Assembly: GCA_000092065.1 (NCBI GenBank)
Contig: CP000589.1
Length of the DNA stretch: 64,000 bases
Strand: one strand, 5' to 3'
Source: Ostreococcus lucimarinus
Lineage: Eukaryota
Positions 4,012 to 23,716 of the stretch are shown here, piece by piece; positions within the stretch are counted from its first letter, which is position 1, and each line of letters opens with the position of its first letter. The position numbers and the translations under genes are program-made. A model generated the notes under the pieces. That model did no database searches. It was not told the origin of the DNA and saw nothing but the letters and a program-made list of their open reading frames with translations.

Positions 4012-4683
4012 CTACGTGTCGTCATCCATCAACGCCCGCACCGCCTTCAACTCGCTCAACAACACGCGAAACTTCTCCTCACTCATCTCCATATCCAAGC
4101 GTCCATCATCTACCGTATCCAACGTCAATCGCACCCCCAAGCTGTCTCCCGGCGCTCGATTCTCGTCATCGCCGTCGCTGCTTCCAAACGTCACTCCCCA
4201 CCCTAAATCCCTCAGCCCATTCACTCGCACCGTGGCTCCGAGCGCGGCTCGCCGTAACCCATCTCTGTCTTTCCCATACGACTTACACATCGCCTCGGCG
4301 TGCTCTTTCGGCAATCCAAGCTGCTCGAGCTCCCGACCCAGCGTCGTTTCGTCGACGTCGAAGCGCGTGGCGTTCGCGATCGCGTATTCCAACGCTGCCA
4401 CCACCGCTTCCGCGTCCTCGGGCGTGATGGCGTCGTCGACAACTTTGCGGAACTTGGAGTAATCGACCTGCACGCGCGGCGTCTCCGCGGGTGCCGTCGC
4501 GTCGTTGTCGTCGGTCGATTTCAATGTCCCGAACGGTTGCGCATTCGACGCCGCTGACGCGCGAACGGCGACCAAGTGCGAGCACAACAGGCGGACGCGC
4601 ACGCTGGAAAGCTTGGAGACGGTGAAGATCTCGGCGAGGAACCAATCTGGGGCGTCGCGGTCGCCGAAGATTTTAAACTTCAT
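4012..4683 (-). CDS. COMM domain-containing protein (COMMD-like)
   Basis: 223-aa ORF. The C-terminal ~70 aa (LGWGVTFGSSDG...LGVRLTLDT...MEMSEEKFRVLLSELKAVRALM) matches the COMM-domain beta-sheet/helix pattern. ATG start verified. Confidence 0.5.
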   Translation of the reverse strand: MKFKIFGDRDAPDWFLAEIFTVSKLSSVRVRLLCSHLVAVRASAASNAQPFGTLKSTDDNDATAPAETPRVQVDYSKFRKVVDDAITPEDAEAVVAALEYAIANATRFDVDETTLGRELEQLGLPKEHAEAMCKSYGKDRDGLRRAALGATVRVNGLRDLGWGVTFGSSDGDDENRAPGDSLGVRLTLDTVDDGRLDMEMSEEKFRVLLSELKAVRALMDDDT

Positions 4684-4727
4684 CGCGCCGACGAATGCGG
4701 GCGAGCGACGCGACGTTCACTACAAAG

Positions 4728-5903
4728 TTATGCTAATTTACCTTTTGAATCCTTCGAATCGACGTCGCCGATGGATTCTAAAATCTCACGCGTCTTTTCG
4801 AGCAAATCGTACATGTTCTCGCCCGCGTCCGCGCGGCGCGCGCGCTTGGGACCGATGACGTCGAGCGCGGCGTAGGCGAGCGTCGGGAAGAAACGCACGC
4901 AATACGTCAACGCCATGATGGGCTGTGGCGCCAAGACGAGCTCGTCGACGTCGGCGAGCGCAGAGCGTACGATGCGCGCGGCGACGTAATCGACGTTCAT
5001 GCGACCTTTCGTGGACGGCGGTCGCGCGGCCGTTCGCGAAATTGCCGTTTTTGACGCGCTCGGCGACGGCGTGGAATCCGCCATATTCTTGCGAAATATG
5101 ACGCGCTCTTGGCCGTTCATCCCCGTCGCGATCGGACCTGGGTACACACACACCACCTTCACGCCCGTGTTCGCGATTTCAGAGCGCAACGAGTTTAAAA
5201 ACGCAGCATACGCCGATTTCGCCGCGGCGTACACGGACTGGCCCGGCGCCGGAACTTTGCTCGCGACGCTACACACGCCGACAATCTTCGGCGCGATCGA
5301 GCCCGCCTTTCGCCGACGCGCCGCGGCGACCATTCGCTTCGCGACTTCCTTCGTCAGAGAAATCGCCCCGATCGCGTTTAATTGAAACAACGCCTTGTCC
5401 ACGTCTTCGTCGTCGCCCGCCAAAGCGCTGCACGCCTGCGACCCGCCCGCGGCGTTCACGAACACATCCACCGTCCCACCCGCCGCCTCGAACGCCCTCT
5501 CGCACGCTTCGCTCAGCTCGCTCCGCGTTCCGCACACGTCAAACACCACGCATTTCGCGCTCGCCGCTCCCAACCGCGCGCACTCCTCCGCGACTTCCGC
5601 GCACCGCTCGGCGCGTCGTCCCGACACCACCACCCTCGCCCCGAGTCTCGCGCACGCGCGCGCCGTCGCCTCTCCGAGCCCCTGCGACGCCCCCGTGATC
5701 CACACCGCGCGTCCTCGAAGCGCGCGCGCCGGTCCCCGTCGCGCCGTCGCCCGCGCGACGACCGCGCGCGCCAGCCACGCGAGCGCGAGCGCGAGCGCGA
5801 GCGCGACGCGACGCCGCGCGCGCGCGAGCGCGACGACCGCGACGACGGGCGCGAGCTCGCGCGCGATCGCCGCGCGACGTCCAGCGCGCGCGAACGCCGA
5901 CAT
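4728..5903 (-). CDS. short-chain dehydrogenase/reductase (SDR) with N-terminal hydrophobic anchor
   Basis: TGASQGLGEATA Rossmann glycine motif, YAAAKSAY catalytic Y-x3-K, N-terminal Ala/Leu-rich TM segment. ATG verified at 5903. Confidence 0.8.
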   Translation of the reverse strand: MSAFARAGRRAAIARELAPVVAVVALARARRRVALALALALAWLARAVVARATARRGPARALRGRAVWITGASQGLGEATARACARLGARVVVSGRRAERCAEVAEECARLGAASAKCVVFDVCGTRSELSEACERAFEAAGGTVDVFVNAAGGSQACSALAGDDEDVDKALFQLNAIGAISLTKEVAKRMVAAARRRKAGSIAPKIVGVCSVASKVPAPGQSVYAAAKSAYAAFLNSLRSEIANTGVKVVCVYPGPIATGMNGQERVIFRKNMADSTPSPSASKTAISRTAARPPSTKGRMNVDYVAARIVRSALADVDELVLAPQPIMALTYCVRFFPTLAYAALDVIGPKRARRADAGENMYDLLEKTREILESIGDVDSKDSKGKLA

Positions 5904-6046
5904 CCCGCGTCGCGCGGTGCGGCTGGTCGGCGCGCGCGCGGCGAACGCGAGAGGCGAGAGGCGAAGCCGCGCGCGGTCGTTCGTGAGATTACGATCACAA
6001 GCCGTCGGACGACGAACGCGACGCGCGCGATGAAGATCGATCGCGC

Positions 6047-7129
6047 TTAATCGAGCTTAAAACCGGGGATCGGGGCGTACAAGAAGGGCTCGCGGGCGAG
6101 CGGCATGCCGAGGAGCGCGAAGACGCCGCCGGCGGCGGCGCCGACGAGAATGATCGTGACGCCCCATTGCACGCCCTTGCGCACGAATTGAGCGACGACC
6201 TCGGGATCGTTTTCGTTGGCGGTCGCGTTCGTCGTCGTGAGCTGACGCCGGACGTCGATACCGAGAAGCTTGCGCTCGGCGGCTCTCGCCGTTTGCTCGC
6301 TCGCTCGACTCGTCAACGCCAGGGCGTTAAATTCGATACCCTTCTCGGCGCGCATCGCGCGCAACACTCTAGCCACGCTCGCTCGCGTTTCGACGACGGC
6401 CCATTTTGCGATTTCGCTCTTCGAGCCAAACTTCTTCGACGCGTACGTCGCCCCCTCCAACGCGACGTACGCGAATTCCGCGCCGTCGCCGCCCTCGAGC
6501 GCGAACGCCCGCGCCCCCTCCTCGAAACACCGCAACTCTCGCTCGACGTACCCTTTCGCCCGACCGAGCGCATCGACGTCGCTCTTCTTCAAAACTTTCA
6601 AGTCGTCGCTCCCGAAGCACGCCTCACGATCGAACAACGCCTTCGTCTTCGCGCGTTCGCACCCGTCGCCTTCGCCGTCGGCGATCGCCTTCGCCGCGTT
6701 CGACAATCCCACCGCACCTTCGACCCGCACCTCCCGCCGCGTCACCCCTGGCACGTCCCAAACATCTGCACCGCCATCCGCCACGATCGCGTCGTGCGCG
6801 AACGTCAAGAACCTTCCCTTTCTCGTCCCCGCGCCGTCGCTCGAGCGTCGCGCCGCGAACCAAATCTTCTCCTCGTCCACCGTCGCCCGCACGACGTCGT
6901 CGCGCGCCGAGACGCCCTCCGCGACGAGTCCGAGCGACGCGCGCGCGATGACGGCGAGCTCATCGAGCGTGATCGCGCGCTTCATCGCGTCGTCGCCCGT
7001 CGAGAGCCATCCATCGGTCGTGGCGTCGAAAAACGTCCCGGCGGTCTCGCGCGTCGCGCGCGCGACGTCGCAGCGCGCGACGAGCGCGACGAGCGCGATC
7101 AGCGTCGCGGCGACGCGCGCGCGAGGCAT
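6047..7129 (-). CDS. secreted/type-I membrane hypothetical protein
   Basis: The in-frame ATG gives MPRARVAATLIALVALVARCDVARA, a signal-peptide-like N-terminus. A C-terminal TM helix (WGVTIILVGAAAGGVFALLG) follows. The upstream 7130..8170 part of the ORF-track entry is antisense to the Vps18-like gene and judged spurious. Confidence 0.5.
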   Translation of the reverse strand: MPRARVAATLIALVALVARCDVARATRETAGTFFDATTDGWLSTGDDAMKRAITLDELAVIARASLGLVAEGVSARDDVVRATVDEEKIWFAARRSSDGAGTRKGRFLTFAHDAIVADGGADVWDVPGVTRREVRVEGAVGLSNAAKAIADGEGDGCERAKTKALFDREACFGSDDLKVLKKSDVDALGRAKGYVERELRCFEEGARAFALEGGDGAEFAYVALEGATYASKKFGSKSEIAKWAVVETRASVARVLRAMRAEKGIEFNALALTSRASEQTARAAERKLLGIDVRRQLTTTNATANENDPEVVAQFVRKGVQWGVTIILVGAAAGGVFALLGMPLAREPFLYAPIPGFKLD

Positions 7130-7217
7130 GGCGACGTTCGACCGACGCGCGCGCGCGGCGTCGCGGTTTGACGATAGATTCCGCGATTCACGACACTCAT
7201 CCGCGCGCGGTCGCGCG

Positions 7218-10200
7218 ATGTCGCGTCCGTTACCCGCGGGTGCGGCGCTGTTGGACGATCCAAACGCCAGGGCGTCGTTCGACGCGTTCGCGCGCCGCGA
7301 CGGGGTCGCGCGCGATGAAGAAACAGACGAAAACGCGCGCGATGTTGATTTGGATGCATCGGCGTCGCGGCCGAAATTCGCGGCGCTGAACGTCGGCGCG
7401 ACGTTGATGACGCCCGGAGTGGAGTCGGATGATGTGGACGATCGCTTAAAGGCGTTCGTGTTGGGTGGGGGTTCGAACGGGCGCGCAGTCGTGAGCGACG
7501 GCGGCGGCGGCGCGTTCGTCGGGCGGTTGGGCGACGGCGCGCGCGACGGCGTCGATGACGACGCGATCGCGCGGAAGATCTCGAGCGAAAACGCGGAAAC
7601 GTCGACGAGCTTGATCGTCGTGGACGATTGGTGCGGCGAACACTGCGTGATCGGGGTGATGGGTCGAGGCGACGGCGCCGGGGACGGGGCGCGATATTGG
7701 CGGCGAGGTTGGGCGGCGGCGCGGCCGCTCGCGGGTTTGCGTGGCGTGCACTGCACGTGCGCGACGTTCGTCAAGGGGAAAGACGGCGACAACGATGGGG
7801 CAAGGATCCTCTTGGGCTCGAGCGATGGGCGCGTGTTCGACGTGCGCGTGGACGCAGCGGACACGCGACGGTTTGAAAAATCGTGCGAAGTGGCGTTAGA
7901 GTTGCGAGACGGGAAAGCCATCACGGGAGTGTGCGCGACGAAAGATCGCGCGAGCGATGGTAGTGAAAGGTTCGGGGCACTGATTACGACGCCGTCGAAA
8001 TTGTACGCGTTCGTGGGGTCGTATTCATTAGAGTCCGTGCTCGCCATGGCACGCGCCCGACCGAGCGGTTTCGAGGCGGCGGTTGAGATGCCCGTGGAGA
8101 GCGATAGGAGTAAGCTGTGCGTGTGGCGAAAGCGGCGATCATCAACGCCTGATCGCATGGCGTGGCTCACCGGGGCTGGGGTTTATCGCGGGAAGCTGAA
8201 TTTCAAAGTCGACGACGCTTCAAGCGTGTTGGAGCAACACGGCGCGCTCCCCTTTCCAAAACTAGAAGACGACGAATCGGGGAACGACGCCCCGATTTCG
8301 CTTGCGATGACGGAGCATCACATTTTATTGCTATACTCGACGCGTTTGGTGGCCATGAATTCAATCACGGGAGATGTGGAAGGGACGATTAAACTACCCC
8401 TAGGTGGCGCGTCGACATTCGCTTTCACCGATCCTGCGACGTCTGTTCCGTACGCGGCGAACGCAGAGAATTTGCTACAAATCGTCGTTACAAACGAAGA
8501 TGCAAACATGTGGCGAGTGTACTGCGACCAAAATGATTACGACCAAGCGATTACGGCGTGCAAGTCTGATTTACAGCGGCAGTTCGTGTACACTGCTCGA
8601 GCAGAACGCGCGTTGAAATTGAAACGCTTCGACGAAGCCGCGACGGCGTTTGCCAACGCCGGCATCGCGCACGCAATCGAAACGATCGCAAAAACGTTCG
8701 TTGACTTGAACGCAAAAGACGCACTGTATGCGTACATGGAAGGGCGGTTACGCGGCTTACCGCAAGACGATGCGGCACGACGTTTGATCATCGCCATGTG
8801 GTTGCTTGAGGAGTACGTCAAGATTGCGAGCTTCTCTCGCAACGAGGCGAACGACTTCAAGGTTCGAGAGTTTTTGCGAGAAAATTTCGAGAGCCTGGAC
8901 GAACGGGAAGCGTTGCGAATTTTAAGCGAAGCTGGTCGTATCGATGACGAAATTTACTTTGCCGAACTGTGCGGTGATTACGACAGGGTATTGGATCATT
9001 TCATGCAAATCGGCGACGCGAGAAAAACTTTAGAAATCGCGGCTTCGCCTAAAGTACCGCGTTCAACGTTGAATCGAGTGTTGCCGACACTCATTAAGGC
9101 ACTGCCAAAAGACTCGATCGATTTCATGCTATCACGCCCGAAGACGGATGACGATGTGAAAATTATAGAGGCTTTGGCTCGCGACGATGCGTCCTACGCG
9201 GCGTCAGAGACGAGTGAATCGCTGGCTGCATACTTGACGAGATATTTAGAGTCCATCACGGCGAAACCGGACGGCGCAGCTCGCGGCGACGCCACGGTGC
9301 ACGATCTTCTGCTCGATGTGTACATCAAACAGCTAGAATCCTCACCCACCGTGGTGGCAACGTTGAACAAGTACATACTCGACGCCGTGGATGAAAGCAC
9401 TAATGCGCCGTACTACGACGTACATTATGCGATTCGTATGTGCGAAAAACATGGCGCACATCGAAGCGCTGTGTACGCATACTGTGTATCTCGGGATTTT
9501 GACATGGCCATGCACGTCGCGTTGACGACGCTTCAAGATGTGGAGTTGGCAAAAACCGTGACGAAAAAAGCCGCCGAGTCGAAATCAGATGATCCAAACG
9601 AAGACGAAATCACGCAGAAAAAACTGTGGATTGAGATTGCAAAGTGGTCGATTCGCAAGTCTGGTGCACTGGACAAGGCAATGGCATCGATGGACGAAGA
9701 CGAAAAGCGCACCGCGATTCGCAGCGCGCTGAGCTTTTTGAATGAAACCAACGGCGCGTTGCGTGTGGAGGACATTCTTCCTCTCCTTCCCGACTTCACC
9801 ATCATCGACGACGTGAAGGACTTGGTGCTGCAGTCTCTCACAGAGCATCGAACGGAGATCGAACAATTGAAAGAAGGCCTAGAAGAGATCACCGCCTTCA
9901 CGCAAGACGTCCAGGACGATATCGAGGAGATGGAACAGAAAACCATCGTCATCTCCAAGGATACGAAGTGCTTTGAATGCGGCAAGCCTGTGGTGCGTTT
10001 GCGTCTGATGGAGACGGCGGATGATCCAAACTTACTCGCCCCTTTCTATGTCTTTCCGTGCGAGATGGCGTATCACACTGAGTGCCTACTCCGACGCACG
10101 CTACCTCTCATGCTCATCGATCAACGCAAACGAGCGTTGGCGCTCATGCGTGCGCTCAAGGTGCCGCTCCCGCGACGGCTCAAGCCCGAGACAAAGTTTT

Positions 10201-13400: not shown

Positions 13401-13581
13401 CGCGTCCGTCCGCGTCGTCCTGTGCCGTTTTTCGCGGCCGTTTTTCTCGAGAGATCCAAACCGTTTTTTATCTGACGCGACCGCGCGAGGCGACGTCGCG
13501 CGAGTGGATAAGGCGCCTCACCGCGCCGCGCGCGCGCGCGACGCGCGCGGAGGCGCCGAAAAGCTAGGACCGCGCTCGAGA

Positions 13582-14628
13582 ATGACGCGCGCGTCGATCT
13601 GTCGCGCGGTGCCCGCGCGCGCCGCGCGCGCGGCGCCGCGCGCGCGCGCGAACGCGCGACGTGCGGGACGCATCGCGACGACGACGCGCGCGGCGTCGAC
13701 GACGGACTTCCCGAGCTTCTTCCCGCCCGAAGTGCGCGAACTCGAGGAACCGGCGGCGATCGCGATGGCGCGGCGGTGCCGATCGGTGTCGGTGGACGTC
13801 CCGGGGCGGGCGAAGGCGGTGCTGACGTCGTGCGCGGGCGACGCGGGGCCGGCGGGGAGCGACGCGGCGCCGTTCGTGCTGCTGCACGGATTCGATTCGT
13901 CGTGTTTGGAGTACAGAAGGTTGTTTCCGAAGCTCGCGGCGAAGGCGGAGACGTGGGCGGTCGATTTGTTGGGCTGGGGGTTCACGGACGCGCAGGATGG
14001 AGGGATCGGGGATTACTCGCCCGAGGCGAAGCGAGCGCACTTGTACGCGTTTTGGAAGGCGAACGTCGGGCGGCCGATGGTGCTGTGCGGTGCCTCGCTC
14101 GGGGGAGCCGCGGCGATAGATTTCGCGACGAATCATCCGGAGGCGGTCGAGAAGCTCGTGTTGATCGACGCGCAAGGTTTCATCGAAGGTCTCGGGCCGA
14201 TGGGCGCGTTGCCGCGGCCGGTGGCGAAGATGGGCGTGAACATTTTGCGCACGACGGCTTTGCGCAACGCGGCGAATCAAATGGCGTATTACGACAAAGC
14301 GACGTTCGCTACCGATGATGCGCTTCGCGTCGGGCGCTTGCACACGTTTGCGCCGCAGTGGTGCGACGCGACTTTGTCGTTCATGCAATCCGGCGGGTTC
14401 AAGGTGAGAAACTCCATCGCGAAGGTGCCGATGGAGACGCTCGTGTTGTGGGGTCGTGAAGACAAAATCTTGGAGCCCAGCTATGCTGAAAAGTTCATGA
14501 AGGAGCTACCGAACGCACGATTGGTGTGGGTCGAAAAGTGCGGGCACGTCGCGCACTTGGAGCAACCCGAGTTCATGTGCCAGACGCTTTGGGATTTCGC
14601 GGGAAAGACGAGCGCGGCGACGGCGTAG
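13582..14628 (+). CDS. alpha/beta-hydrolase fold protein with N-terminal transit-like peptide
   Basis: ORF 12856..14628 trimmed to ATG 13582 (the upstream part overlaps the Ubl gene). It has the HGFDSS oxyanion region and GASLGG nucleophile elbow (GxSxG), with a C-terminal His region (CGHVAHLEQPE). Confidence 0.8.
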   Translation: MTRASICRAVPARAARAAPRARANARRAGRIATTTRAASTTDFPSFFPPEVRELEEPAAIAMARRCRSVSVDVPGRAKAVLTSCAGDAGPAGSDAAPFVLLHGFDSSCLEYRRLFPKLAAKAETWAVDLLGWGFTDAQDGGIGDYSPEAKRAHLYAFWKANVGRPMVLCGASLGGAAAIDFATNHPEAVEKLVLIDAQGFIEGLGPMGALPRPVAKMGVNILRTTALRNAANQMAYYDKATFATDDALRVGRLHTFAPQWCDATLSFMQSGGFKVRNSIAKVPMETLVLWGREDKILEPSYAEKFMKELPNARLVWVEKCGHVAHLEQPEFMCQTLWDFAGKTSAATA

Positions 14629-14716: not shown

Positions 14717-15838
14717 TTAAACGACTTGCAACGGCATCGTCGTTTGCGGCTCGCCGACGAGGATAAAGCTCACGGTGTATACCGGAGCGGCGCCGATCGG
14801 CACTTGCAGCGCGCCTCCAAACATCGACATTCCGGGCATTGCGTACATTTTCCCCAGGAAAACGCCCGGGTAAATCGGTCGCAACTCATCGCGGAAGTAC
14901 GTAAAGTCGTGATTGAACGAGCTGTAATCGACGACGACAGCGTTCGTGCCCGGCTGAAAGTTGGAAGAACTGATTTCGGCTCGGCCCGGGTAGAGTTCGA
15001 TTGGCTCCGCCAGTCGTGGGAAGACGCTGTTCAGTAAGGTGCCGTAATTCAACTGAATCAGATTCCTTACTGACGCAGGATCGATTTGATCAAAGACTTT
15101 GCCGCGCCAGCTGTCGAAATTGAATGTTCTACGAACGCCGTACGCGCGGGCGATCGCTTCGTACGTCCCGGTACCGAGGATACACCCCTCGTAGCGACCT
15201 CGAGGAATTTCTGTGCCGGAAAAGTCCGCGGCTTGCCAGTACGCGTCGTCCATCGCCGTGTCGTCGAGATTCGCGCGCAAGAAATCAGAGCCACACACAT
15301 CGTTTTCGACAAATTTACTCACGTTCAACGGGTTGTATCCAAACTGGCCGTCGTCATCGACGTACGAATATAGATTTTGGGCAAAGGTTGAGTTCCAGCT
15401 CGTCGGCGCGAGCGCCGCTCTCGCGCTTTCATCTGACTGGCGCTCGACCGTGGCTGTCAAATTGAACCGCAAGAGCTCAGAAAAGAAAAAAGTCGTGGCG
15501 CGATTCACCACGCGCTCGACGAACGTCGTCGGCCCGAAGAGGGTGTTATCGGTCGCAAAGTCCAGAAAGTAATCTAGCACGGGCGTCGACGTTTCCTCGC
15601 CGCTTTGTCGCGCGAGAATCCAATCCAACACTGGCGTCGCAGTTTCCTCACCGCTTTGTCGCGCGAGAATCCAATCCAACACTGGTGTACCGTCGCCCTG
15701 AGATCCCAAGAGCTTTCGTCGAGCGATCGCGCTGGTGTACTCCGAATCCGACGTCCGGTCGTCGAGCGTCCTCGCGCTCGCCGCTGTCGCGCAGCCCAGC
15801 GCCGCCAAAACCAGCAGCGCCGTCCCCGCCTTCTTCAT
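14717..15838 (-). CDS. secreted hypothetical protein with internal 17-aa tandem duplication
   Basis: In-frame ATG gives MKKAGTALLVLAALGCATAASA, a signal peptide. TPVLDWILARQSGEET is repeated twice, encoded by a 51-bp DNA tandem duplication. There are several NxS/T sites. Confidence 0.55.
   Translation of the reverse strand: MKKAGTALLVLAALGCATAASARTLDDRTSDSEYTSAIARRKLLGSQGDGTPVLDWILARQSGEETATPVLDWILARQSGEETSTPVLDYFLDFATDNTLFGPTTFVERVVNRATTFFFSELLRFNLTATVERQSDESARAALAPTSWNSTFAQNLYSYVDDDGQFGYNPLNVSKFVENDVCGSDFLRANLDDTAMDDAYWQAADFSGTEIPRGRYEGCILGTGTYEAIARAYGVRRTFNFDSWRGKVFDQIDPASVRNLIQLNYGTLLNSVFPRLAEPIELYPGRAEISSSNFQPGTNAVVVDYSSFNHDFTYFRDELRPIYPGVFLGKMYAMPGMSMFGGALQVPIGAAPVYTVSFILVGEPQTTMPLQVV
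15591..15692. repeat. 51-bp perfect-ish tandem duplication (x2) inside the CDS of the secreted protein
   Basis: gtttcctcgccgctttgtcgcgcgagaatccaatccaacactggcgtcgca is followed immediately by a near-identical copy (3-4 mismatches). Confidence 0.85.
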
Positions 15839-16071
15839 CGCACATCGCGCGCCCTTCACGAACCGCACGTTCACGAAGAATTTTCGCGTCATTTTCCGTC
15901 GCGTTCGTCTCGCGTTCGTCGTGCGCGTCGCGTAATGCCGCCGCCTCGAAACGCTCAATGTGACGGTTAAAATCCATTCGCCTCGAAACGCGCGACTTCG
16001 CGCCTCGAAACCATCGACGGTGGCGTCGCGCGTCCGAGTCGACGCGCGGCGCGCGAGCGCATTCGCACTCC

Positions 16072-17103
16072 ATGTCCGCGTCGCCCGCGTCGCTCGTCGC
16101 TCTCGCGCGTCGCGTCGCGCAGTGGCGCGCCGTCGACGATGACGCGCGTGGCGGCGGCGTCGTCGCGCGCGCGAATCCCAAGGCGTCGCGCCGCGCGCGC
16201 CAGCGGAGAGAACCGAACGAAAGCCACCCCAAACGCAAGTACACGATCGAGGAGCGTTTGAAGCACAAGGGCGTGGACGTCGAGCGGGCGCGGATGGGCG
16301 GCGCGCGGGACCGGGACGACGCCGGCGGCGGGGCGGCGTCGAGCGCGGCGGTTTCGACGAGTGGAGACGTCCCGAAGGGCGAAGACGTGTGCGAACGCGT
16401 GGCGGAGTTGGCGTTCAGGCAAGACGCCGAGGGGTGGCCGGCGCAAAAGACGGAGGCGTGGGCGTTCGCGCGGGCGAGCGCGTTGACGGCGAGCGACGTC
16501 GGGCGAGTGTTGAGCGGCGACGGCGCGAAAGTCTTGATGCGCAAACAGCGCACGCGAGCCGCGGAGCAGGCGTTAGAGCGCGACCGTGCGACTTCGGCTT
16601 TGGTGCGAGAGGTAACAGAGGCGCCGGTGGCGACGGGGTCGTCGAAAAAGGAAAGGAAAGGGAAGGGCGGAGGTACGTCTCCCGCGATTCGACACGGTAA
16701 CGAATTTGAATCCGAAGCCTTGGCGCACTACGAAGCCGTATTGGGGACAAAGTGCCTGGAATTCGGACTCAAAATACATGACGTGCACTACTGGCTCGGC
16801 GCTTCGCCCGATGGCGTGCATCCCAGCGGTCGCATCGTCGAGATAAAATGTCCGTACTCTCGACCAATCATCGCGCGTCGGCGCGCGATGGAGCACTATG
16901 CCCAAATTCAAACCTTGTTGGAAGTCTTCGACCTCGATTATTGCGACTTTGTGCAGTACAAGCCCGCGGGACGCGGCAAAGGCCGTTCGGGCGACCCTGA
17001 CGCTCCGGAATTCCTCTGCGAAACCATCGCTCGAGACGCCGAGTGGTGGTCGACGCACTTCGACGAGCTCCAAACTTTCGCCGCGAGCCTTCCTTCGCCC
17101 TAG
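16072..17103 (+). CDS. YqaJ-like (lambda-exonuclease/PD-(D/E)xK) recombination exonuclease domain protein
   Basis: ATG verified. QKTEAWAFARASALTASDVGRVL ... GASPDGVHPSGRIVEIKCPYSR is the canonical YqaJ motif set (TE(E)W..R.G.ITAS; G.SPDG; EIKCP). Confidence 0.7.
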   Translation: MSASPASLVALARRVAQWRAVDDDARGGGVVARANPKASRRARQRREPNESHPKRKYTIEERLKHKGVDVERARMGGARDRDDAGGGAASSAAVSTSGDVPKGEDVCERVAELAFRQDAEGWPAQKTEAWAFARASALTASDVGRVLSGDGAKVLMRKQRTRAAEQALERDRATSALVREVTEAPVATGSSKKERKGKGGGTSPAIRHGNEFESEALAHYEAVLGTKCLEFGLKIHDVHYWLGASPDGVHPSGRIVEIKCPYSRPIIARRRAMEHYAQIQTLLEVFDLDYCDFVQYKPAGRGKGRSGDPDAPEFLCETIARDAEWWSTHFDELQTFAASLPSP

Positions 17104-17302
17104 CGCGCTGTGCACGCATGTAAACATTTATTGGTTTCTCGCCGCACTCCGGACGTCGAGCGCGCTCGTCGACGCGCGCGCATTCATCCGCGCGTCGTCG
17201 CGCGCGCAAAAATTTGAAATTTCCCACAGCTCGAGCCGTCCCGTCGTGCCCATCGCGCCGTCGCCAAACCGCGCCTCGCGCCCGGGGCGTCATCCGCTCG
17301 CC

Positions 17303-20300
17303 ATGGATTGGGCGTGTCTAAACGACGCCTCGCAACCCCCCGACGACGTCGAACGCCTCGCGCGTCGCACGGCGGAGGCGGAAGAGTCGCGATTGATTTC
17401 CTCGTACGAACACGCCGTGCGGAGAGCCGCGTCCGGAAACGCGCACGAAGCGATCGAGAGCCTGCGCGCGGTGCTCGCGCACGCGCTGACGAATCGCGAG
17501 GACGTCTCCGCGCGATTGCTCCGGGTGAAGTTTCTGTCGCTGAAAAATCTCGGGCGATTGCTGGATGAACGCGGGACGGCGGCGAGCGAAGACGACGAGG
17601 CGGCGCGAACGGATCGAGAGGAGGCGGTGCGGTGCTACGCGAGCGCGGTAGAGATAGACGACACGGATGCGTTGGTGTGGGGAAGATTGGGACGCGCGGC
17701 GGTGGCGGTGGGCTCGATGGCGGTGGCGAGGATGGCTTACGAGAGAGCGGTGAGCGCGAGCCCGCGGAATCAGCTGTTTTTGGAAGACTTGAGCGAAGTG
17801 TGCCTGAGCGCGGGGGATTTTGAAACAGCCAAGGCGTTGGCCGGGGCGGTGATGGAGATTGACCCTGGAAATGCGCGCGCGCGAGCGATGAAACGCGCGC
17901 CGGAGGCGCTGGAACCGACTCGGGCGATGAAGGTGGCGAGAGAAAGAGCGGCGTCGGCGGCGTCGACGAGGGATGAGGGAGAAATCGCGATTCGGTTGAG
18001 CGCGGACATGGACAAGAATTGGGGGGTGATAACCGCATTATTAGCGCGCCTCGGTGGTGCTCCGACTCCGGAATCGATCACGAGGAGCGGCAAAGCGAAG
18101 GATGCCGCTGAGCCCGAGACGCCCGCTGAGGCGGAGAATGCCGACGCACCGGCTACACCGACGCAGTCAAAAGAGGTGGACGTGGTGCCAGGATCGGCAA
18201 CGGCAGACGACGAGGATGTTTCGGAAGATGATGTGATTTCTTCTTCATTCGCAAAGTATATGCGCCACGTGCGAGACGTCCACATCCCGAGAGATGTGAT
18301 AGGGAGAAAGGTTCGATTCGTGTTTGATTCGCCGTCTTCGATGCCGATGGAATTAGGAACGACTGATGTCGTCGATCTGACGGACAAAGACGTTTTGACA
18401 CAACCATCTGTGGACACGCCATCTACATCCCAGCCGGTGAGCGAAGTGAGTGCAAGCCAAGCCAACAAAACGCCCTCCAAGGCGGCTGCAAAGGCCAAGG
18501 CGGCTGCAAAGGCGCAGAAAGATGTCGCTACAATTCGGAAATCGCGACGTCAACTGGAATTAGACGAGAAAAAAGCGCTCGAAGACGAAAAGATGCGCAT
18601 TATCGCCGAACAGGAAGCCATTCAAAAAGCGCTAGAAAAGGAGGAGAAGAGAAAAGCTGCCGAGGCAAAGGAATGGAAACCGGAATCGAACATCTCTCGC
18701 GCTCTGTTGAATTTGATAGGCGCTGAAGACCCAGTCGTGTCAGCGGTAAAAAAAGCAACTACCGACGTCGCGGGTGCCAGAGATCGTGCGAATACCATCA
18801 AAAAGCAACATCAGAGAGAATTGAAGGAGGCAGCTGCGAAGAGGGCGAAAGAGGAGCGTGAAATGAAGACGCATAAGCGAGTTTCTTCATTCGTTAACGC
18901 CATTGACGATGTGCATGCAGGCGCCGCGCACATCGCTTGGCGATTCTTATCTACAACAGCTGCTCGCTGGCGACCGGACACTGAAGATGATTGCTCGCCA
19001 CCTCCTTGGTCGATCATTTACCTGTATCACATCTTTGGCGTTGGACAGGGAGACGAGCTCGCGCCCGTGGCGCGAATATTGTTGTGCATCGCTGACACCG
19101 CAATTCTTGCGGCGCGCGAATGTGCGCTTGGACATCCGGGGCGCACGTACTTCAGAAACATGGCAGTCGGGTTGTTAGACGAGGTATCTTTAGTGATGAA
19201 CCGTGATCCGAAACAAGACTTTCACGCAGAGAGCCTGTTCTTACGTCATAAGCTTGTGGATCTAGATGGCGAAGATCGAAGTGTGAGCATGTTCTACCTT
19301 GAACGGGCGCAAGAAGTTGCTCCGGATGATGCAGATCTCCCGCCGGCACCTGCCTCAATCGAAGATGCCGCACCCGCACGTTTCAGTAAGCAGTCATTAC
19401 GTGCCGCGATGGACGCAATGAAGGTGAAGGAAGTTGTCATTGGCGCCGCGGCGAGATTTGCCAAGGGGCAGACTACCGAAGTAGTATCAACGTTGACACC
19501 TCTACTCTTACCCGATGAAGATCAGGAAGAATCGACCGATAATTTGGACGCGCTTTGCTTGACGCAATCAGAAAAGCAAAATGCACTTAAGGTGCTCGCG
19601 GCGGCGGCGAAAAGGCAAGGTCCATCGTGTGTCGTTATTCAGATAAAAGCTCTCAAGATGGCTTACGACTTGGACGTAACGAAACATCACTCGATGCTGA
19701 GACTCATCGCTGAGGCACTGGAATCCACCGACCGCGCACACACAAAGCAAGCGCTCGAAGTCGTTGAATCTATGGGATTAGCGGCGATCGCGGCGTCGCT
19801 GTTTGAGGCGCATTACACCGAGTTCGCGATGGCACCTGGAGTGAAGAAGAAAAACAAAGCTTCGCGTTATGCTGCCGCAAGCTTGGAGGCTTCAGCACTA
19901 CTAATCTCCGCTATCCAGCGAGCTTCAAAGCCAAAAGATTTGGAACTCATTGAGTTGCATGAGAAACTTCATGATCGCCTCGCGGACTGTCGATGCTGTT
20001 GCGGCGACTATCGGAAAGGAGTGTTTCTGAAGTCGTCTCTTGTCCAGTTGGCCAAATGCAGAAATCGTATTACAAAGGCGCGAGATCAACGACACGCTAC
20101 TGAACCCACAAAAAAGCGGACAACGAAAGTCACCATCGAAAACCGTAGCAAGGACACTTCCGATAAGGTGAAAAGGAAAAAGAAGGTGGATGCGGATGAT
20201 GAGGGTGAATTCCGCCGACGTGTGCGTCGTCAGCGTAGCAGCATCAGTAGCATCGAAGACGACGATAGAACACCGCAAGACAAGGCTGATCGTAAACTTC

Positions 20301-23300
20301 TAGATCGGTTGGATAAACTCATAATCCAGCTGTGTCACTGCGTGTATGGATTTACATTGGATCAGCCCACTCGGAATTGCCGAGAAGAATATGGCGCATG
20401 TACGACCACACTTCATATTTCGAACGAAATGGAAGCCGCCAACCTTTGGTTGGCCATTCAACCTTACGCCATGGTGAACAAGGAAAGTATTCCCAGCGCC
20501 GTCATTGAGGAGATCCGCAAGAAAATATCCGATCCACCGAAGACCGAGCAAGCTACACTTATCGAGAAGTACTTGTCCACAGGCTCAGACGACCTTGCGT
20601 GCTCGTCTATCGCAAACTTTGGAGAGATAACCGAGCAAGATCGACAGCTCGCTCGAGAGCTAATCAGCACGCCGACCGCAGATGAAGTCATCGTTGCTCG
20701 ACAAGGAGGCTCGACTCCGAAGAACGGCCCCAGCGCGCCGCCGACTCCGGTTGTCACTACAGACGTCATGCATTATCTCACGAGTACTCCAACTACAGAC
20801 CGTGCGCTTCGCACCGTTCAATCCGATGAGAAAATTTCGTTGTTTGCGAGCTTTTACAAAACTTTCTTGCAATTTTGTGCAGACATGGACGTTGTTGCGC
20901 TCGAAACATTGCTCGAGGACGAACAAACAGATTATGATCAACTTCATGCGTTGCTTGGAAGTGTTGCATCGTCGACTCCCACGGCGCAGCAATCTGCTGT
21001 GGCGGCCAAGAGCGAGGAGGTGACGAAGCTGTACAAGTTTGACGTCGAGTACAATCCCACGCGCCCGCAAAGTTGGATCGCGCTGGCCGATCACCTGGAT
21101 AACATCAAAGATATCGTTCTTAACGATGCCGCCAAAATCTTGGCAGTCGGCACCTTCCGCGCGTCTCCAATGTTGACAATGCTTCAGTCGACGCAGCTGG
21201 CGATTCGACGGGCGTTGATTGCGGCGGAAGAGGCTTTAACAATGACTCATTATCCTGGACACCCGGAGACGGAGTGGGTGCGGTCACAAATTTACGAGCG
21301 CCTCGGCCAAACTGCGTACGAGCTCGTACAGGATGCTCCACCAATATACGACTCTCGCAAGTTTGCTTTGGTCAAAACTACTCCTACGTACGCATCCACG
21401 CTTGCGTTGTGCAAACAAGCGTTCACGAAAGCTTCCGAAGCTTATCCCGACAATTGGATATACCCCCACTACCTGGCGAAGATCGCGAAAAAAGATGGCC
21501 AACCTTTATCACACGTTCTCGAAACCCACGCACAGGCGCTCGCGATAAAGCCGGGCTGTTTGGAAGCAATCTATCAAGTGACGAATATTCGTTTGCACAT
21601 GCTCTTGTCCATCGAGGTTAGCGGAAGAAAGAAGATGACTCCAGAGTCACAAGCAATCACGCTTTGCGTACTCAAGCAACCGTTTAACCCAGGAGACATG
21701 CAAAATAGTTGGATCGGTGCATATCGAGATTGCATCGTAGCGTTGCTCTTCATCAACAAGAATTATCCCAAGTTCCACAAGGCGAGCTATCGTCTTGCGT
21801 GGGCTCGCTTGAAAAAGTCTCCGGGAGAACTCGGGCACTGTCAAAAAGCTTTGGAGTACCTGAACCCTCTATTCAAAAGTCCTCGGACTGGAACGTTCAA
21901 GATTTTCATGACTGAAATCGATGACACAAATTTGGGCATCAAGACTCCCGTGGAGACGGTCGACGGAAATATTGCGTATGAGTGCGGTATCAGCGAATCT
22001 CGACGACGCTTCATAGCGAACGTTCGCCGTACGCTTCGCTTGTACTTGACGTTGCTTTACACAAACGAGGACATGGGTACACTTGCGGCGGTAGTTTCTT
22101 ACATCACGGACTATTCCAAAACCGCCACGAAAACGCGTCTGCCAATCATCGCGAACTCACAAGACGTGCGCTTCTTTGCTTTCGGACTTTTGTTGCGAGC
22201 CCTTGCGGCAAGGCTCTCGGTTGTGGGTCGAAGAATTCAAGAATCATTGCAGAAAGAACAAGCGTCCATGCTCGCTGGAAAAGAAGGCGCGAATACAGAA
22301 GCGGGTACGCCACAAGCGGCGTCGGTCGCATCGACCAAACTAGATGTGTACCTCGAACAAGCGTACAATGTTTGGTTTGACTTCGCGGTTCCCGCTCGAG
22401 GAAATATGTTGTCTTGGGAGCAAAATGTCGACGAGGCTTTCACACAACTTGAAGTCGAGGAAAGCCGCACCGACGAAGGCCCTGATCTCGTCAAGGAACC
22501 TTACAAGACGGCGTTCAGTAGCGCGAGCAAGTTCACGAAGTCATCACCAGAGATGAATTTCGAACAGTACGCTCTCGAGTGCATAACCGACTTGGAAGCC
22601 AAATCTGACTTGAATACGCTCGCCGCACGGCTATCCCTCTGTCAAAAACGTTTCAGGGAAATCGAACCTGAAGCCGACGCGCAAGTGAAAGAATCAGGCA
22701 TGAATCGTTTGAAGATTCTTGGTAACGCGTTGAAGGATGCGTTCATCAGATGCTCTGCGCCGACGATTGAACTCTTGGCAAAAGGGGAAATCAAGTTATG
22801 CCCGGGTGGTTTAGAAAACGTCGAAGAAGAGACCTCGAAGAAGGACAACGATGCTGTCGTCGACGAAGCGAAAGAAGGTACCGAGGCTGTGAATTCGCCG
22901 CAAAAGTCTACGCCAACCAACTTCACCGAAATCGTCCTCGTCACTGCGCGGCGTCTTCATGTGGTAACGAAGACAGAATCTACGGCACGACTGTACGAGT
23001 TCGCTGTCCAACGACGCAATTCATTGCAAGCTCTGATCGATGCGATTGATTCTGGTAGCACACCAACGGACATGGAAGACCCGAGCGTGCCTGTCGTCGC
23101 TAAACTTCACGCGGAAGTCACCAAGCTAACGGCAAAAATTGCCGAGCTGAAAACAAAGCACAGCAATTTGGTCGAAAGCGCGCTCGTCGCCGAAGGCCAG
23201 ACGACCGATCCAGAACAACTAAAGCTCGTCAAGGAAACGTACGAGGAGCTCACCACTACGATTGTTCGATGTGAGAAACTCAAGGCGGATCACGCCTGTG

Positions 23301-23571
23301 AAGTGGTCAATTACCGCAAAGAGACGAGCCAGCTCGCGGATGAAATGGGCAAGCGCGACATTGGCAACGCTGATTCGACAGAATACATCCTGCGCGTGAT
23401 GAGCGCCGTGCTCCAACGTGAAGTGACCGATATCGATGAAGCCGAACGCGAAGCCGAAATCGCCATCGGAGAGCTGAGAAGGTTGCGTTCGGACGTCGCG
23501 AAAACGAAACGCGCGAAAGTCAGTCGCGGTCGCTCAAAAAAATCCGCGGCGACAAACGCGACGGAAGCCGT

Positions 23572-23609
<38 letters not shown>

Positions 23610-23716
23610 TCGAACCTCGCCAAGAGCTCGAGCCCCCTCGGCCCGAGCCCGAGCCCACCTCTGACGTCACCATGCTCGTCGCCGACGCCGTCGCCGACGC
23701 CGTAGCCGACGTCTGA
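17303..23716 (+). CDS. giant TPR-repeat protein, CABIN1/Hir3-like (HIRA-complex component candidate)
   Basis: 2137 aa from in-frame ATG (MDWACLND). The N-terminal TPR region (VRCYASAVEIDDTDALVWGRLGRAAVAVGSMAVARMAYERAVSASPRNQLFLEDLSEVCLSAGDFETAKAL) matches the Hir3/CABIN1 signature. It also has long coiled-coil/K-E rich segments and a C-terminal DADADADA microsatellite-encoded tail. Confidence 0.5.
23573..23610. repeat. (GCCGAC)n hexanucleotide microsatellite encoding a poly(Asp-Ala) tail
   Basis: gccgacgccgacgccgacgccgacgccgacg. A second degenerate copy is at ~23671-23706. Confidence 0.9.

Follow-up and report, generated by a model that had tools for sequence, protein, structure and literature searches.

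Among the closest described systems to the gene considered here are lambda exonuclease (Red-alpha) and LHK-Exo of Laribacter hongkongensis (1avq, 3sm4, 3syy; PF09588). Enzymes of this YqaJ/lambda-exonuclease family are Mg-dependent, degrade double-stranded DNA from its ends in the 5'→3' direction and form a toroidal trimer; in the 3sm4 complex, R28 of lambda exonuclease binds the 5'-phosphate of the DNA end. Large viruses have such enzymes as well. Mimivirus R354, the Cas4-like nuclease of MIMIVIRE (5yet/5yeu), has a YqaJ core with the same motifs, and compact core YqaJ exonucleases occur in prasinoviruses and other phycodnaviruses (DSLPV1 ORF115; proteins of ~236-238 aa on the IMG/VR contigs L014 and L032). 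The prasinoviruses concerned infect the very group of algae to which the present gene belongs. In land plants, nuclear-encoded proteins of phage type have been named "phage-related exonuclease" or "restriction endonuclease type II-like" (At1g67660; tomato Solyc10g081050). Both presumably carry PF09588, an assumption to which a Brassica gene annotated as YqaJ lends indirect support. The tomato orthologue of At1g67660, Solyc10g081050, has been found in the chloroplast stroma proteome (PMC10493611).

The green alga Ostreococcus lucimarinus provides a further case. The stretch of DNA analysed, hereafter the window, is 64 kb long and contains one copy of a YqaJ gene: an intronless and complete reading frame encoding 343 aa plus a stop (Table 1). 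An exact-sequence look-up returned a 100% match to XP_001419534.1 / UniProt A4S2I1 of O. lucimarinus CCE9901, which already bears the name "YqaJ viral recombinase domain-containing protein"; proteins encoded next to it were matched to the same genome. Since the gene has been public with the CCE9901 genome and carries its domain label in UniProt, it is not a new discovery; a literature search for the function of this protein in Ostreococcus turned up no paper. The reading favored here, which we consider likely, is that the frame is a resident, single-copy and vertically inherited nuclear gene of O. lucimarinus for a catalytically intact YqaJ/lambda-exonuclease protein.

With regard to the nuclease domain, the first-pass annotation had recognized the full YqaJ/lambda-exonuclease motif set in this frame, and the motifs are indeed present: TEAWAFARASALTASDVGRVL (aa 127-147), GASPDG (aa 243-248) and EIKCP (aa 257-261). 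The assignment to the YqaJ group of PD-(D/E)XK nucleases also stands. Pfam PF09588 matches aa 130-280 with E=1.4e-11 and 45.3 bits, against a gathering cutoff of 22, over profile positions 2-141 of 150, and PHROG 149 ("exonuclease") matches with E=1.8e-16. Comparisons with structures agree. The single sequence matches LHK-Exo (3syy, 1.5e-9), mimivirus R354 (1.6e-6) and lambda exonuclease (6e-3) in the PDB, and a family profile matches the same three at 6.9e-19, 1.5e-15 and 2.2e-8, respectively. The score for NCBIfam TIGR03033 (phage_rel_nuc), 54.7 bits in an alignment confined to the C-terminal half (aa 200-298), is under the cutoff of 68.05, so that the protein is to be regarded as a divergent member. 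In the AlphaFold2 (AF2) model, pLDDT exceeds 90 across most of aa 100-180 and 206-343. Foldseek searches with this model retrieved lambda exonuclease, LHK-Exo and R354 at E ~1e-9 (R354 at 6e-9), the best PDB matches being 3sm4, 3syy, 3slp, 5yeu, 1avq and 3k93, with a probability of 1.00.

The likeness extends to the active site. In a HMMER alignment to 6m9k_A, where QGDDAWHKLRLGVITASEV faces qkteaWafaRasvltasdv, residues R28, E85, D119, E129 and K131 of lambda exonuclease correspond to R134, E213, D247, E257 and K259 of the algal protein; these five residues are invariant across 16 homologues with identities down to 32-37% (alignment A1). Thus the fold, the catalytic E-D-E-K set, the 5'-phosphate arginine and the order of motifs (QxxxW..R..TAS, HG..E, SPDG, EhKCP, Y.Q.Q) are common to the algal protein, lambda exonuclease and LHK-Exo, although identity is only 16-26%. 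Judged from its sequence, the protein belongs to the YqaJ/lambda-exonuclease branch of the PD-(D/E)XK nucleases and has its catalytic residues intact; its activity is predicted on this ground. In comparison with the two phage-type enzymes, it has ~100 additional residues at the N-terminus (a leader and a basic module), a helix-and-loop of 55 residues (aa 151-205) and a Gly/Arg loop longer by 8 residues (aa 299-306), and its gene is a eukaryotic nuclear one, without an adjacent annealase gene. R354 shares 17% identity, with N- and C-terminal additions of its own and a different genomic context.

Table 1. Features of the YqaJ locus of O. lucimarinus, with positions in the 64-kb window
Feature	Position	Strand	Evidence
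Alpha/beta-hydrolase gene, second upstream syntenic anchor	13492..14628	+	Pfam Abhydrolase_6, E=6e-22
Secreted-type protein gene, upstream syntenic anchor	14717..15892	-	No Pfam match; signal-peptide-like MKKAGTALLVLAALGCATAASA
Divergent intergenic (promoter) spacer between secreted-type gene and YqaJ gene	15893..16071	.	Repeats; orthologous loci
YqaJ/lambda-exonuclease-family CDS	16072..17103	+	ORF list; Pfam; exact-sequence match; colinear with orthologues and PDB homologues
Leader aa 1-34, variable, net-basic, Ala/Ser/Arg-rich	16072..16173	+	Homologue leaders; dN/dS; pLDDT <50
Conserved basic module aa 35-74, NPKASRRARQRREPNESHPKRKYTIEERLKHKGVDVERAR	16174..16293	+	Alignment A1; Mamiellophyceae-type clade only; no Pfam match
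Nuclease domain, lambda-exonuclease fold (aa 99-343)	16366..17100	+	AF2 pLDDT >90 outside loops; Foldseek 3sm4, 3syy, 5yeu; profile vs 3syy
Codon R134, motif Q-K-T-E-x-W-x-x-A-R (lambda R28)	16471..16473	+	HMMER alignment to 6m9k_A; invariant in A1
Lineage-specific insertion aa 151-205	16522..16686	+	AF2 model (secondary structure, pLDDT); variable, with gaps, in A1
Codon E213, motif HGNEFE (lambda E85), metal-site acidic residue	16708..16710	+	6m9k_A alignment; invariant in A1
Codon D247, motif GASPDG (lambda D119)	16810..16812	+	Alignment sPDg / SPDG; invariant; direct read
Codons E257-I258-K259, motif EIKCP (lambda E129-L130-K131)	16840..16848	+	Alignment veikCP / LELKCP; E257 and K259 invariant; direct read
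Clade-specific Gly/Arg loop aa 297-311, KPAGRGKGRSGDPDA	16960..17004	+	Alignments; pLDDT ~59
2137-aa TPR protein gene, downstream syntenic anchor	17303..23716	+	TPR matches

The N-terminal extension had been described as long and Arg/Ala-rich, and it is both real and ~100 aa in length, upstream of the nuclease domain. Its first part, the leader, terminates at a conserved junction, V-x-R-A | (H/N)-P; in homologues, leaders measure 14-84 aa, are poorly conserved and contain few acidic residues. The leader is a candidate organellar transit peptide, and the tomato protein in the chloroplast stroma offers a parallel. The basic module that follows has the consensus RAHPxASxRAxxRRxPDxxHPKRxxTVxERLxxKGVDVERxR in alignment A1. 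It can be recognized in Micromonas-like and Bathycoccus-like homologues, but not in those of Pyramimonas or of viruses. Its features would fit a putative nuclear-localization signal or a tail that binds DNA or a partner. The signals for the cellular compartment are ambiguous: the leader resembles a transit peptide, yet aa 40-57 are compatible with a bipartite nuclear-localization pattern (RR-x12-KRK).

Two further additions lie within the domain itself. The insertion at aa 151-205, placed between the R134 and E213 helices, begins in the AF2 model with a long helix (151-181) and continues as a disordered loop rich in Lys and Gly (182-205), and the stretches on its two sides nearly adjoin in viral and bacterial homologues. 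The Gly/Arg loop, in which K297, P298, G300, G302, G304 and G307 are invariant, is longer than in viral and bacterial homologues and faces an 8-residue gap in LHK-Exo. The variable leader, the HPxAS+RA..PKR..ERL..KGVD module, the KP.G.G.G..G loop and a position beside the secreted-type gene are all found in O. lucimarinus; they mark what is called here the Mamiellophyceae-type host YqaJ clade, a grouping defined in this analysis.

How does this clade relate to the enzymes of prasinoviruses? The two share 35-41% identity over the whole domain, a helix before Q-K-S/T-E-x-W, and the motifs LEV/ILDLE.CDF.QY and RDREWF. Unlike the algal protein, the viral ones are compact, with neither leader nor basic module and with a shorter loop, and their genes are part of a viral replication cluster, RNase III - YqaJ - SNF2. 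Closer in sequence are homologues from other prasinophytes (Pyramimonas obovata MMETSP1169 P0106, Pyramimonas sp. P0331, and Cymbomonas tetramitiformis CYMTET_15275 P0127), with 43-47% identity in the domain; the one of P. obovata is transcribed, as it comes from an MMETSP transcript. Like the O. lucimarinus protein, they are extended at the N-terminus and carry a basic loop behind VQY, but they lack the HP..S+RA...KGVD module. They fall outside the Mamiellophyceae-type clade in a neighbor-joining tree whose relevant branches are unsupported, and some of them could be virus-derived. No land-plant protein was among the best homology-search matches to the YqaJ protein; of ten distant matches looked up by cluster, nine carried no name and the tenth only "hypothetical protein".

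The surroundings of the gene are those of a host chromosome. The window contains genes for Vps18, DET1, PheRS, dynamin, DHHC, KTI12, NAD synthase and CLPTM1, that is, ordinary nuclear DNA, and the earlier description of the frame as a stand-alone gene is correct. It had also been placed between a secreted-protein gene and a CABIN1-like gene. The former is where it was said to be, and a TPR gene does lie downstream; the CABIN1-like label goes back to one faint precomputed match to HIR3_TPR_N, in one orthologue (L004) only, and the domain scan of the 2137-aa window protein gave TPR repeats only. This protein is possibly HIR3/CABIN1-like.

The same arrangement is found in metagenomic relatives, whose genus labels (Micromonas-like, Bathycoccus-like) are assigned from GC content and introns only. 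The order hydrolase(+) / secreted(-) / YqaJ(+) / giant TPR(+) / DEAD helicase(+) is kept in L001/L002, L004, L005 and L006, with flanking-gene identities of 48-87%. Orthologues of the hydrolase gene share 69-84% identity in L001, L002, L005, L006 and L010 and occur as exons in L009. The secreted-type gene is orthologous, with position and orientation kept, in L001/L002, L004, L005, L006 and L008 (57-87%) as well as in L010 (36%), and orthologues of the TPR gene (48-58%) lie directly 3' of the YqaJ gene in L001-L006. In L008 the order is kept up to the ends of its 2.5-kb contig. The more distant, GC-rich L010 retains hydrolase / secreted(-) / YqaJ(+), and the distant, intron-bearing L009 has the hydrolase, the secreted gene, YqaJ and Vps18 inside ~15 kb. 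In short, every relative recovered (seven related loci) has a YqaJ gene at this locus. The first-pass annotation had named shared flanking genes in relatives as evidence that would speak against a mobile element; orthologues with both flanks conserved exist in five relatives, at 55-94% identity, and two more show partial order.

The spacer upstream of the gene contains three exact copies of CGCCTCGAAAC, at 15942, 15979 and 16001. CCTCGAA(A/T)-like motifs were found again in the equivalent spacer of orthologous loci. As a genome-wide promoter motif, CGCCTCGAAAC was rejected, because it is not enriched (10 occurrences against 6.0 expected, with one mismatch); its core CCTCGAAA shows mild enrichment (9 against 3.6). 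The copies are best regarded as a local cluster, peculiar to this locus.

The viral side of the family was approached with the seven-sequence alignment A2 as query, which retrieved relatives at 573 IMG/VR loci; identity reaches 35-41% in the best of them, and several are named GVMAG. The nearest non-algal relatives are therefore giant-virus genes, mainly core exonucleases that are called prasinovirus-like where their genomic context was checked. In L014, this context reads RNase III - YqaJ - SNF2 ... RNR large subunit - TBP, plus DUF5855 and DUF5871, and agrees with the prasinovirus-type order reported for DSLPV1. The best matches in BFVD were medusavirus, a probable chlorovirus entry and klosneuviruses. 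In a neighbor-joining tree with bootstrap, built on 223 columns and comprising only algal, viral and bacterial sequences, the 13 Mamiellophyceae-type sequences form a clade of their own, monophyletic and separate from the prasinovirus YqaJ proteins (94% bootstrap). The eukaryotic and giant-virus sequences together are split from the bacterial group at 95%; where the host clade stands among the viral and Pyramimonas sequences is supported at no more than 27%. On the favored reading, the gene has belonged to the host from the last ancestor shared by the Ostreococcus-, Micromonas- and Bathycoccus-like lineages onwards, if not longer, and goes back deep in time to a common origin with the core YqaJ exonucleases that giant viruses encode, among them the prasinoviruses of this host group.

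Could the gene nevertheless be a recent arrival, either a fragment of an endogenous giant virus or what is left of a DNA transposon, for instance one of ISL2EU/PHIS type with a YqaJ nuclease? Phages and giant viruses typically have this domain, as do some transposons (PMC4482050), and the DNA around the gene is CG-rich with many short imperfect repeats. This explanation is nonetheless extremely improbable. The same host genes enclose it in seven independent related loci, and since it occupies one chromosomal site throughout the relatives, it did not arrive recently by insertion of a virus or transposon. Identity to the top viral sequence is only 35-41%, and an IMG/VR scan with the window protein alone found no relative, its exact peptide patterns being too specific. 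Purifying selection acts on the gene: dN/dS in aa 101-343 comes to 0.146 in the comparison with L008 (94% identical) and to 0.08-0.18 with the other relatives, with 0.33-0.86 in aa 1-100. Its GC3 of 0.76 declines over thirds (0.87/0.75/0.68), a 5'-to-3' gradient that nearly all window genes share, and no compositional break in GC or GC3 separates it from its neighbors. Between 14.5 and 18.5 kb there are 28 inverted and 27 direct repeat families, short, CGCG-rich and with 70-94% matches; given this composition, and as no pair brackets the gene, they were dismissed as compositional. The search for terminal inverted repeats, target-site duplications and a GC discontinuity that had been proposed for 15.8-17.3 kb thus came back empty. 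Pfam scans of 27 window ORFs detected no transposase, integrase, capsid or polymerase domain and no viral hallmark gene in the 64 kb. An endogenous giant-virus element (GEVE/EVE) would be recognized by viral hallmark flanks, compositional discontinuity and patchy presence, and an ISL2EU/PHIS-type transposon by a DDE transposase, terminal inverted repeats, a target-site duplication and multiple copies; neither set of features is seen here. The suggestion that a mobile element in decay or an inserted endogenous virus shows itself here is accordingly not supported. The idea of a domesticated nuclease fares differently. The closest relatives outside the green algae are giant-virus genes, and an ancient viral connection is therefore possible. 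In this scenario, an NCLDV YqaJ gene was captured long ago by the ancestor of the Mamiellophyceae or of a wider group of prasinophytes and was domesticated by the addition of an N-terminal targeting/basic module. The viral relatives, the BFVD matches, the prasinovirus-type order of L014 and the separation from bacterial sequences all favor such a capture, as do the reports that prasinoviruses have two YqaJ genes each (PMC5769502) and that YqaJ is considered an ancestral or core NCLDV gene (PMC3493329; PMC3620924). Against it, the host clade is nested in no viral clade, its placement in the tree is weak, the tree has the limited method and sampling given above, and the data suit a transfer in the other direction, from the host to the virus, or separate gains from phages just as well. 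The capture is therefore tentative and less likely than not, and for an ancient virus-host exchange, which is possible, the neighbor-joining tree is equally compatible with either direction. The capture scenario concerns the origin of the gene only and is compatible with its being a resident host gene.

As for the role of this resident gene, homology allows a mechanism to be sketched. E213, D247, E257 and K259 would form the metal site, and R134 would grip the 5'-phosphate of a double-stranded DNA end. The 5'-ended strand would then be degraded 5'→3', and the 3' single-stranded tail left behind may serve single-strand annealing or strand invasion in double-strand-break repair or recombination-dependent replication. 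At the N-terminus, the Mamiellophyceae-type lineage appears to have gained two basic parts, the variable leader and the conserved module. They probably send the protein to the nucleus or to an organelle, either plastid or mitochondrion, and may also anchor it to DNA or to a partner. The most likely function is, by sequence, Mg-dependent 5'→3' resection of double-stranded DNA ends in host recombination or repair. The two-component module of phage Red type, an exonuclease with an adjacent annealase, is not seen, the neighbors being the secreted-type and TPR proteins. Pfam scans of the 27 window ORFs, which were not aimed at annealases, gave no RecT, Red-beta or ERF type, so that the phage-style mechanism may not apply.

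Might the enzyme instead take part in the encounter with viruses, by attacking linear viral DNA ends or by being exploited by prasinoviruses? Its resemblance to R354 in sequence and fold recalls the Cas4-like role proposed for the latter in MIMIVIRE, and the viruses of this host clade encode homologous core exonucleases. Such a part is nevertheless very unlikely: no PADLOC defense-model family matched at E<=0.01, the adjoining genes are housekeeping ones with no MIMIVIRE-like helicase or nuclease partner, synteny is stable, the domain shows purifying selection with no rapid arms-race evolution, and the leader points to organellar or nuclear housekeeping. A more elaborate proposal unites origin and role. 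To our knowledge, the green lineage has no established enzyme dedicated to 5'→3' end resection in organellar recombination-dependent replication and repair. A giant-virus gene captured before the split of Ostreococcus, Micromonas and Bathycoccus, and retargeted by a transit peptide, would now be such a nuclease; as a whole, this proposal is unlikely.

Resection of DNA ends by a resident host enzyme thus remains the preferred reading, and its wider meaning is twofold. An exonuclease of phage and giant-virus type is documented as a stable, selected host gene across a class of marine picoalgae, and since core homologues are present in the viruses that infect the same algae, the pair offers a clean case for ancient gene exchange between virus and host. 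Should the leader prove to be a transit peptide, the enzyme would be a candidate for the resection of DNA ends in organelles.

As for the YqaJ gene itself, the ORF and the motifs quoted in the first-pass annotation are both found in the sequence, and the family assignment is solid, with Pfam, PHROG, PDB sequence matches and AlphaFold2 plus Foldseek in agreement. The protein matches PF09588 (E=1.4e-11, 45.3 bits vs a gathering score of 22) and PHROG 149 "exonuclease" (E=1.8e-16). As a single sequence it matches the solved structures of LHK-Exo (3syy), mimivirus R354 and lambda exonuclease, and a 16-homologue profile run against the PDB gives 6.9e-19, 1.5e-15 and 2.2e-8, respectively. The AlphaFold2 model, built on the homologue alignment, has pLDDT >90 over aa 100-180 and 206-343, and its nearest PDB folds are lambda exonuclease, LHK-Exo and R354 (Foldseek E ~1e-9, probability 1.00). 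The protein scores under the cutoff of the narrower NCBIfam family TIGR03033 and is, judged by its sequence, a divergent yet bona fide PF09588 member. The five residues equivalent to those of lambda exonuclease (native numbering) are invariant, 5/5, in homologues down to 32-37% identity, which argues that the protein is very probably an active nuclease.

Anatomy of the YqaJ gene and its protein
Feature	Position	Strand	Basis or remark
YqaJ-family ORF, ATG to stop, 343 aa	16072-17103	+	ORF listing
Leader, variable, net-basic, Ala/Ser/Arg-rich	aa 1-34		ends at conserved junction V-x-R-A / (H/N)-P
Basic module, conserved	aa 35-74		homologue alignment; consensus HPxAS+RA+x+RxPDxxHPKR+xT..ERLxxKGVDVE
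Linker, disordered	aa 75-98		AlphaFold2 model
Nuclease domain	aa 99-343		AlphaFold2 model, alignments
Long inserted helix and Lys/Gly loop in nuclease domain	aa 151-205
Invariant Gly/Arg loop KP.G.G.G..G	aa 297-307
Equivalent of lambda exonuclease R28 (5'-phosphate arginine)	R134		profile alignment to 6m9k_A
Equivalent of lambda exonuclease E85	E213		profile alignment to 6m9k_A
Equivalent of lambda exonuclease D119	D247		profile alignment to 6m9k_A
Equivalent of lambda exonuclease E129	E257		profile alignment to 6m9k_A
Equivalent of lambda exonuclease K131	K259		profile alignment to 6m9k_A

The leader ranges from 14 to 84 aa in homologues, with few acidic residues, and the basic module also matches a bipartite nuclear-localisation pattern. 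In place of the Gly/Arg loop, which is missing from LHK-Exo, viral homologues carry a shorter, non-glycine one. An exact-sequence look-up returns XP_001419534.1 / ABO97827.1 / UniRef100_A4S2I1, titled "predicted protein [Ostreococcus lucimarinus CCE9901]" and "YqaJ viral recombinase domain-containing protein"; the protein is thus public and annotated already.

Is the gene, then, a degraded mobile element or an endogenous viral insertion, as the first-pass annotation had suggested? Homologues on metagenomic contigs are 94% (L008), 64% (L001, L002 and L003), 57% (L004 and L006) and 55% (L005) identical to the window protein, and all these loci keep, within each contig's reach, the order alpha/beta-hydrolase(+), secreted-type(-), YqaJ(+), TPR(+, ∼2100-2240 aa in these loci) and DEAD helicase(+). 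By tblastn, the flanking orthologues are 76-84% (hydrolase), 57-87% (secreted gene), 48-58% (TPR gene), 69-87% (helicase), 75-78% (metallophosphatase) and 60-62% (Vps18) identical, and YqaJ divergence falls within this range of its neighbours. The more distant L010 (P0017, 36% identity in the alignment) retains hydrolase, secreted(-) and YqaJ(+), and the intron-bearing L009 (63.6% GC) holds the hydrolase, secreted-gene homologue, YqaJ and Vps18 within ∼15 kb. Over aa 101-343, dN/dS (Nei-Gojobori) comes to 0.146 in the comparison with L008 and 0.08-0.18 with the other relatives; constraint is looser in the first 100 aa (0.33-0.86). GC3 of the gene is 0.76 (thirds 0.87/0.75/0.68, the gradient of almost all window genes), with no GC step at its borders. 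There is one copy in the window, and no repeats bracket it, the matches found being short, CGCG-rich and 70-94% identical. Conserved flanks, dN/dS in the purifying range, host-like GC, lack of bracketing repeats and a single copy in the window therefore leave the suggested origin unsupported, and identity as an endogenous virus or transposon was rejected; the check that the first-pass annotation itself proposed showed relatives to share the flanking genes and brought up no hallmark of a mobile element.

Apart from this gene, the window consists of ordinary nuclear DNA from a mamiellophycean (Chlorophyta), with genes for Vps18, metallophosphatase, alpha/beta hydrolase, DEAD helicase, DHHC, dynamin (XP_001419538.1 of strain CCE9901), DET1, PheRS-alpha, KTI12, NAD synthase, CLPTM1 and a fibrillin-domain fusion. 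Among the 27 ORFs of the window scanned with Pfam, none encodes a transposase, integrase, capsid protein or viral polymerase. The fusion, an 839-aa ORF (30635-33151), joins a HAD / sucrose-6-phosphate-phosphatase-like hydrolase domain to a C-terminal PAP_fibrillin domain; L009 also has a fibrillin-domain gene close to YqaJ.

Several smaller features accompany these genes. Three exact copies of CGCCTCGAAAC (15942, 15979, 16001) lie in a 70-bp stretch (15942-16011) of the divergent promoter that separates the YqaJ gene from the secreted-protein gene. In L008, L001, L004, L005, L006 and L010, the equivalent spacer likewise contains CCTCGAA(A/T)-type motifs, and the motif is possibly a cis-element conserved with the gene pair; CCTCGAAA occurs 9 times in the whole window vs 3.6 expected. 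A 51-nt tandem duplication (15564-15665, copies 82% identical) inside the secreted-protein gene encodes the repeated peptide TPVLDWILARQSGEET. The 200-bp gap from the YqaJ stop codon to the TPR gene holds a GC-rich inverted repeat (17160-17207; 19 nt, 89% complementary, 10-nt spacer), possibly a promoter or 3'-end element, possibly just a product of composition. The mechanical TPR ORF starts 405 nt before the conserved ATG at 17303 and runs into the YqaJ 3' end (16898-17302); orthologue alignments begin at 17303, and the overlap is therefore an artefact. GC3 drops from the 5' to the 3' third in nearly all 28 long ORFs (e.g., 0.92/0.72/0.72, 0.85/0.75/0.68), and spacers and gene 5' ends reach 70-76% GC; because of this, spurious antisense or out-of-frame ORFs are many. 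Overlaps of ∼90-170 nt between long ORFs (42609-43538(-)/43371-44495(+), 52682-54313/54205-55344(-), 56133-58337/58252-60018(-)), one such pair being KTI12 with a TPR protein, are probably not real and stem from ORF starts set too far upstream in GC-rich 5' regions.

How old is the gene in its host? When 1.84 billion representative proteins were searched exhaustively with a profile, 10,098 matched at E<=1e-3, and 85 of these at E<=1e-30. Full-length relatives share the N-terminal architecture; with genus-type labels given solely by GC content and introns (L009 0.636 with introns, L011 0.444), the GC-rich set (403-507 aa) is probably Micromonas-type and the AT-rich set (341-353 aa) probably Bathycoccus-type. 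L011, of the latter, has a minus-strand gene directly upstream of YqaJ, as in the window. Named cellular relatives are a Pyramimonas obovata transcript (MMETSP1169), Pyramimonas sp. and Cymbomonas tetramitiformis CYMTET_15275; no land-plant proteins are among the best matches. In a neighbour-joining tree (70 sequences, 223 columns, 100 bootstraps), the algal and viral group splits from bacterial homologues (95%), the 13 Mamiellophyceae-type sequences form one clade (94%), and the genus-level clade containing the window protein has 97%. YqaJ was therefore a host gene before the Ostreococcus-, Micromonas- and Bathycoccus-type lineages split.

The viral side of the family is broad. Scanning IMG/VR with the family alignment turned up 573 loci, of which the best reach 35-41% identity; GVMAG names account for 7 of the 80 loci listed, and 29 extracted viral ORFs are mostly 234-244 aa. 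One GVMAG-named contig, L014, reads RNase III, YqaJ, SNF2 helicase ... RNR large subunit, TBP, plus DUF5855 and DUF5871, in agreement with the prasinovirus-type order of DSLPV1 (ORF114 RNase III, ORF115 exonuclease, ORF119 RNR, ORF125 TBP; PMC5769502), a source listing two YqaJ exonucleases per prasinovirus. The RNase III-YqaJ-SNF2 cluster (L014 9179-12396), with RNR large subunit and TBP nearby, has the same layout in L032 and L073, likewise prasinovirus-like IMG/VR contigs. On L007 (13 kb, 54% GC), either viral or an integrated element, a 322-aa homologue that shares 37-46% identity with the window protein and has a long, charged tail at its C-terminus adjoins an 813-aa DUF5906 primase-helicase and a JmjC protein (4083-8043). 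The window gene and the giant-virus genes have a common deep ancestry; the host clade is placed relative to viral and Pyramimonas sequences at <=27% bootstrap. PMC3493329 regards YqaJ as an NCLDV gene of ancestral type, possibly of phage origin, and its Figure 2 legend lists "Ostlu" and "Micsp" among the species, so the host protein may already stand in a published tree.

Another question is what the protein does. Enzymes of the lambda exonuclease / LHK-Exo family digest the 5'-phosphorylated strand 5'->3' at double-stranded ends in a Mg-dependent manner. By analogy, the window protein would function in the same way, and the 3' tails so made would serve annealing or strand invasion. Pfam scans of the window, not aimed at annealases, found no annealase partner, and membership of a Red-like module was rejected on that ground; no PADLOC defence model matches the protein. 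The leader may direct organelle import, or the basic module nuclear import. In tomato, an orthologue of Arabidopsis At1g67660 ("phage-related exonuclease") is among the proteins of a chloroplast stroma proteome, a list that also includes histones (PMC10493611); it is no more than a parallel, not an established orthologue of the algal gene.

Beyond the existing annotation, these data add synteny and selection evidence, a clade-specific N-terminal module, and a relationship to the prasinovirus core exonucleases. Speculatively, a viral exonuclease might have been captured anciently and then retargeted to organelle DNA maintenance.
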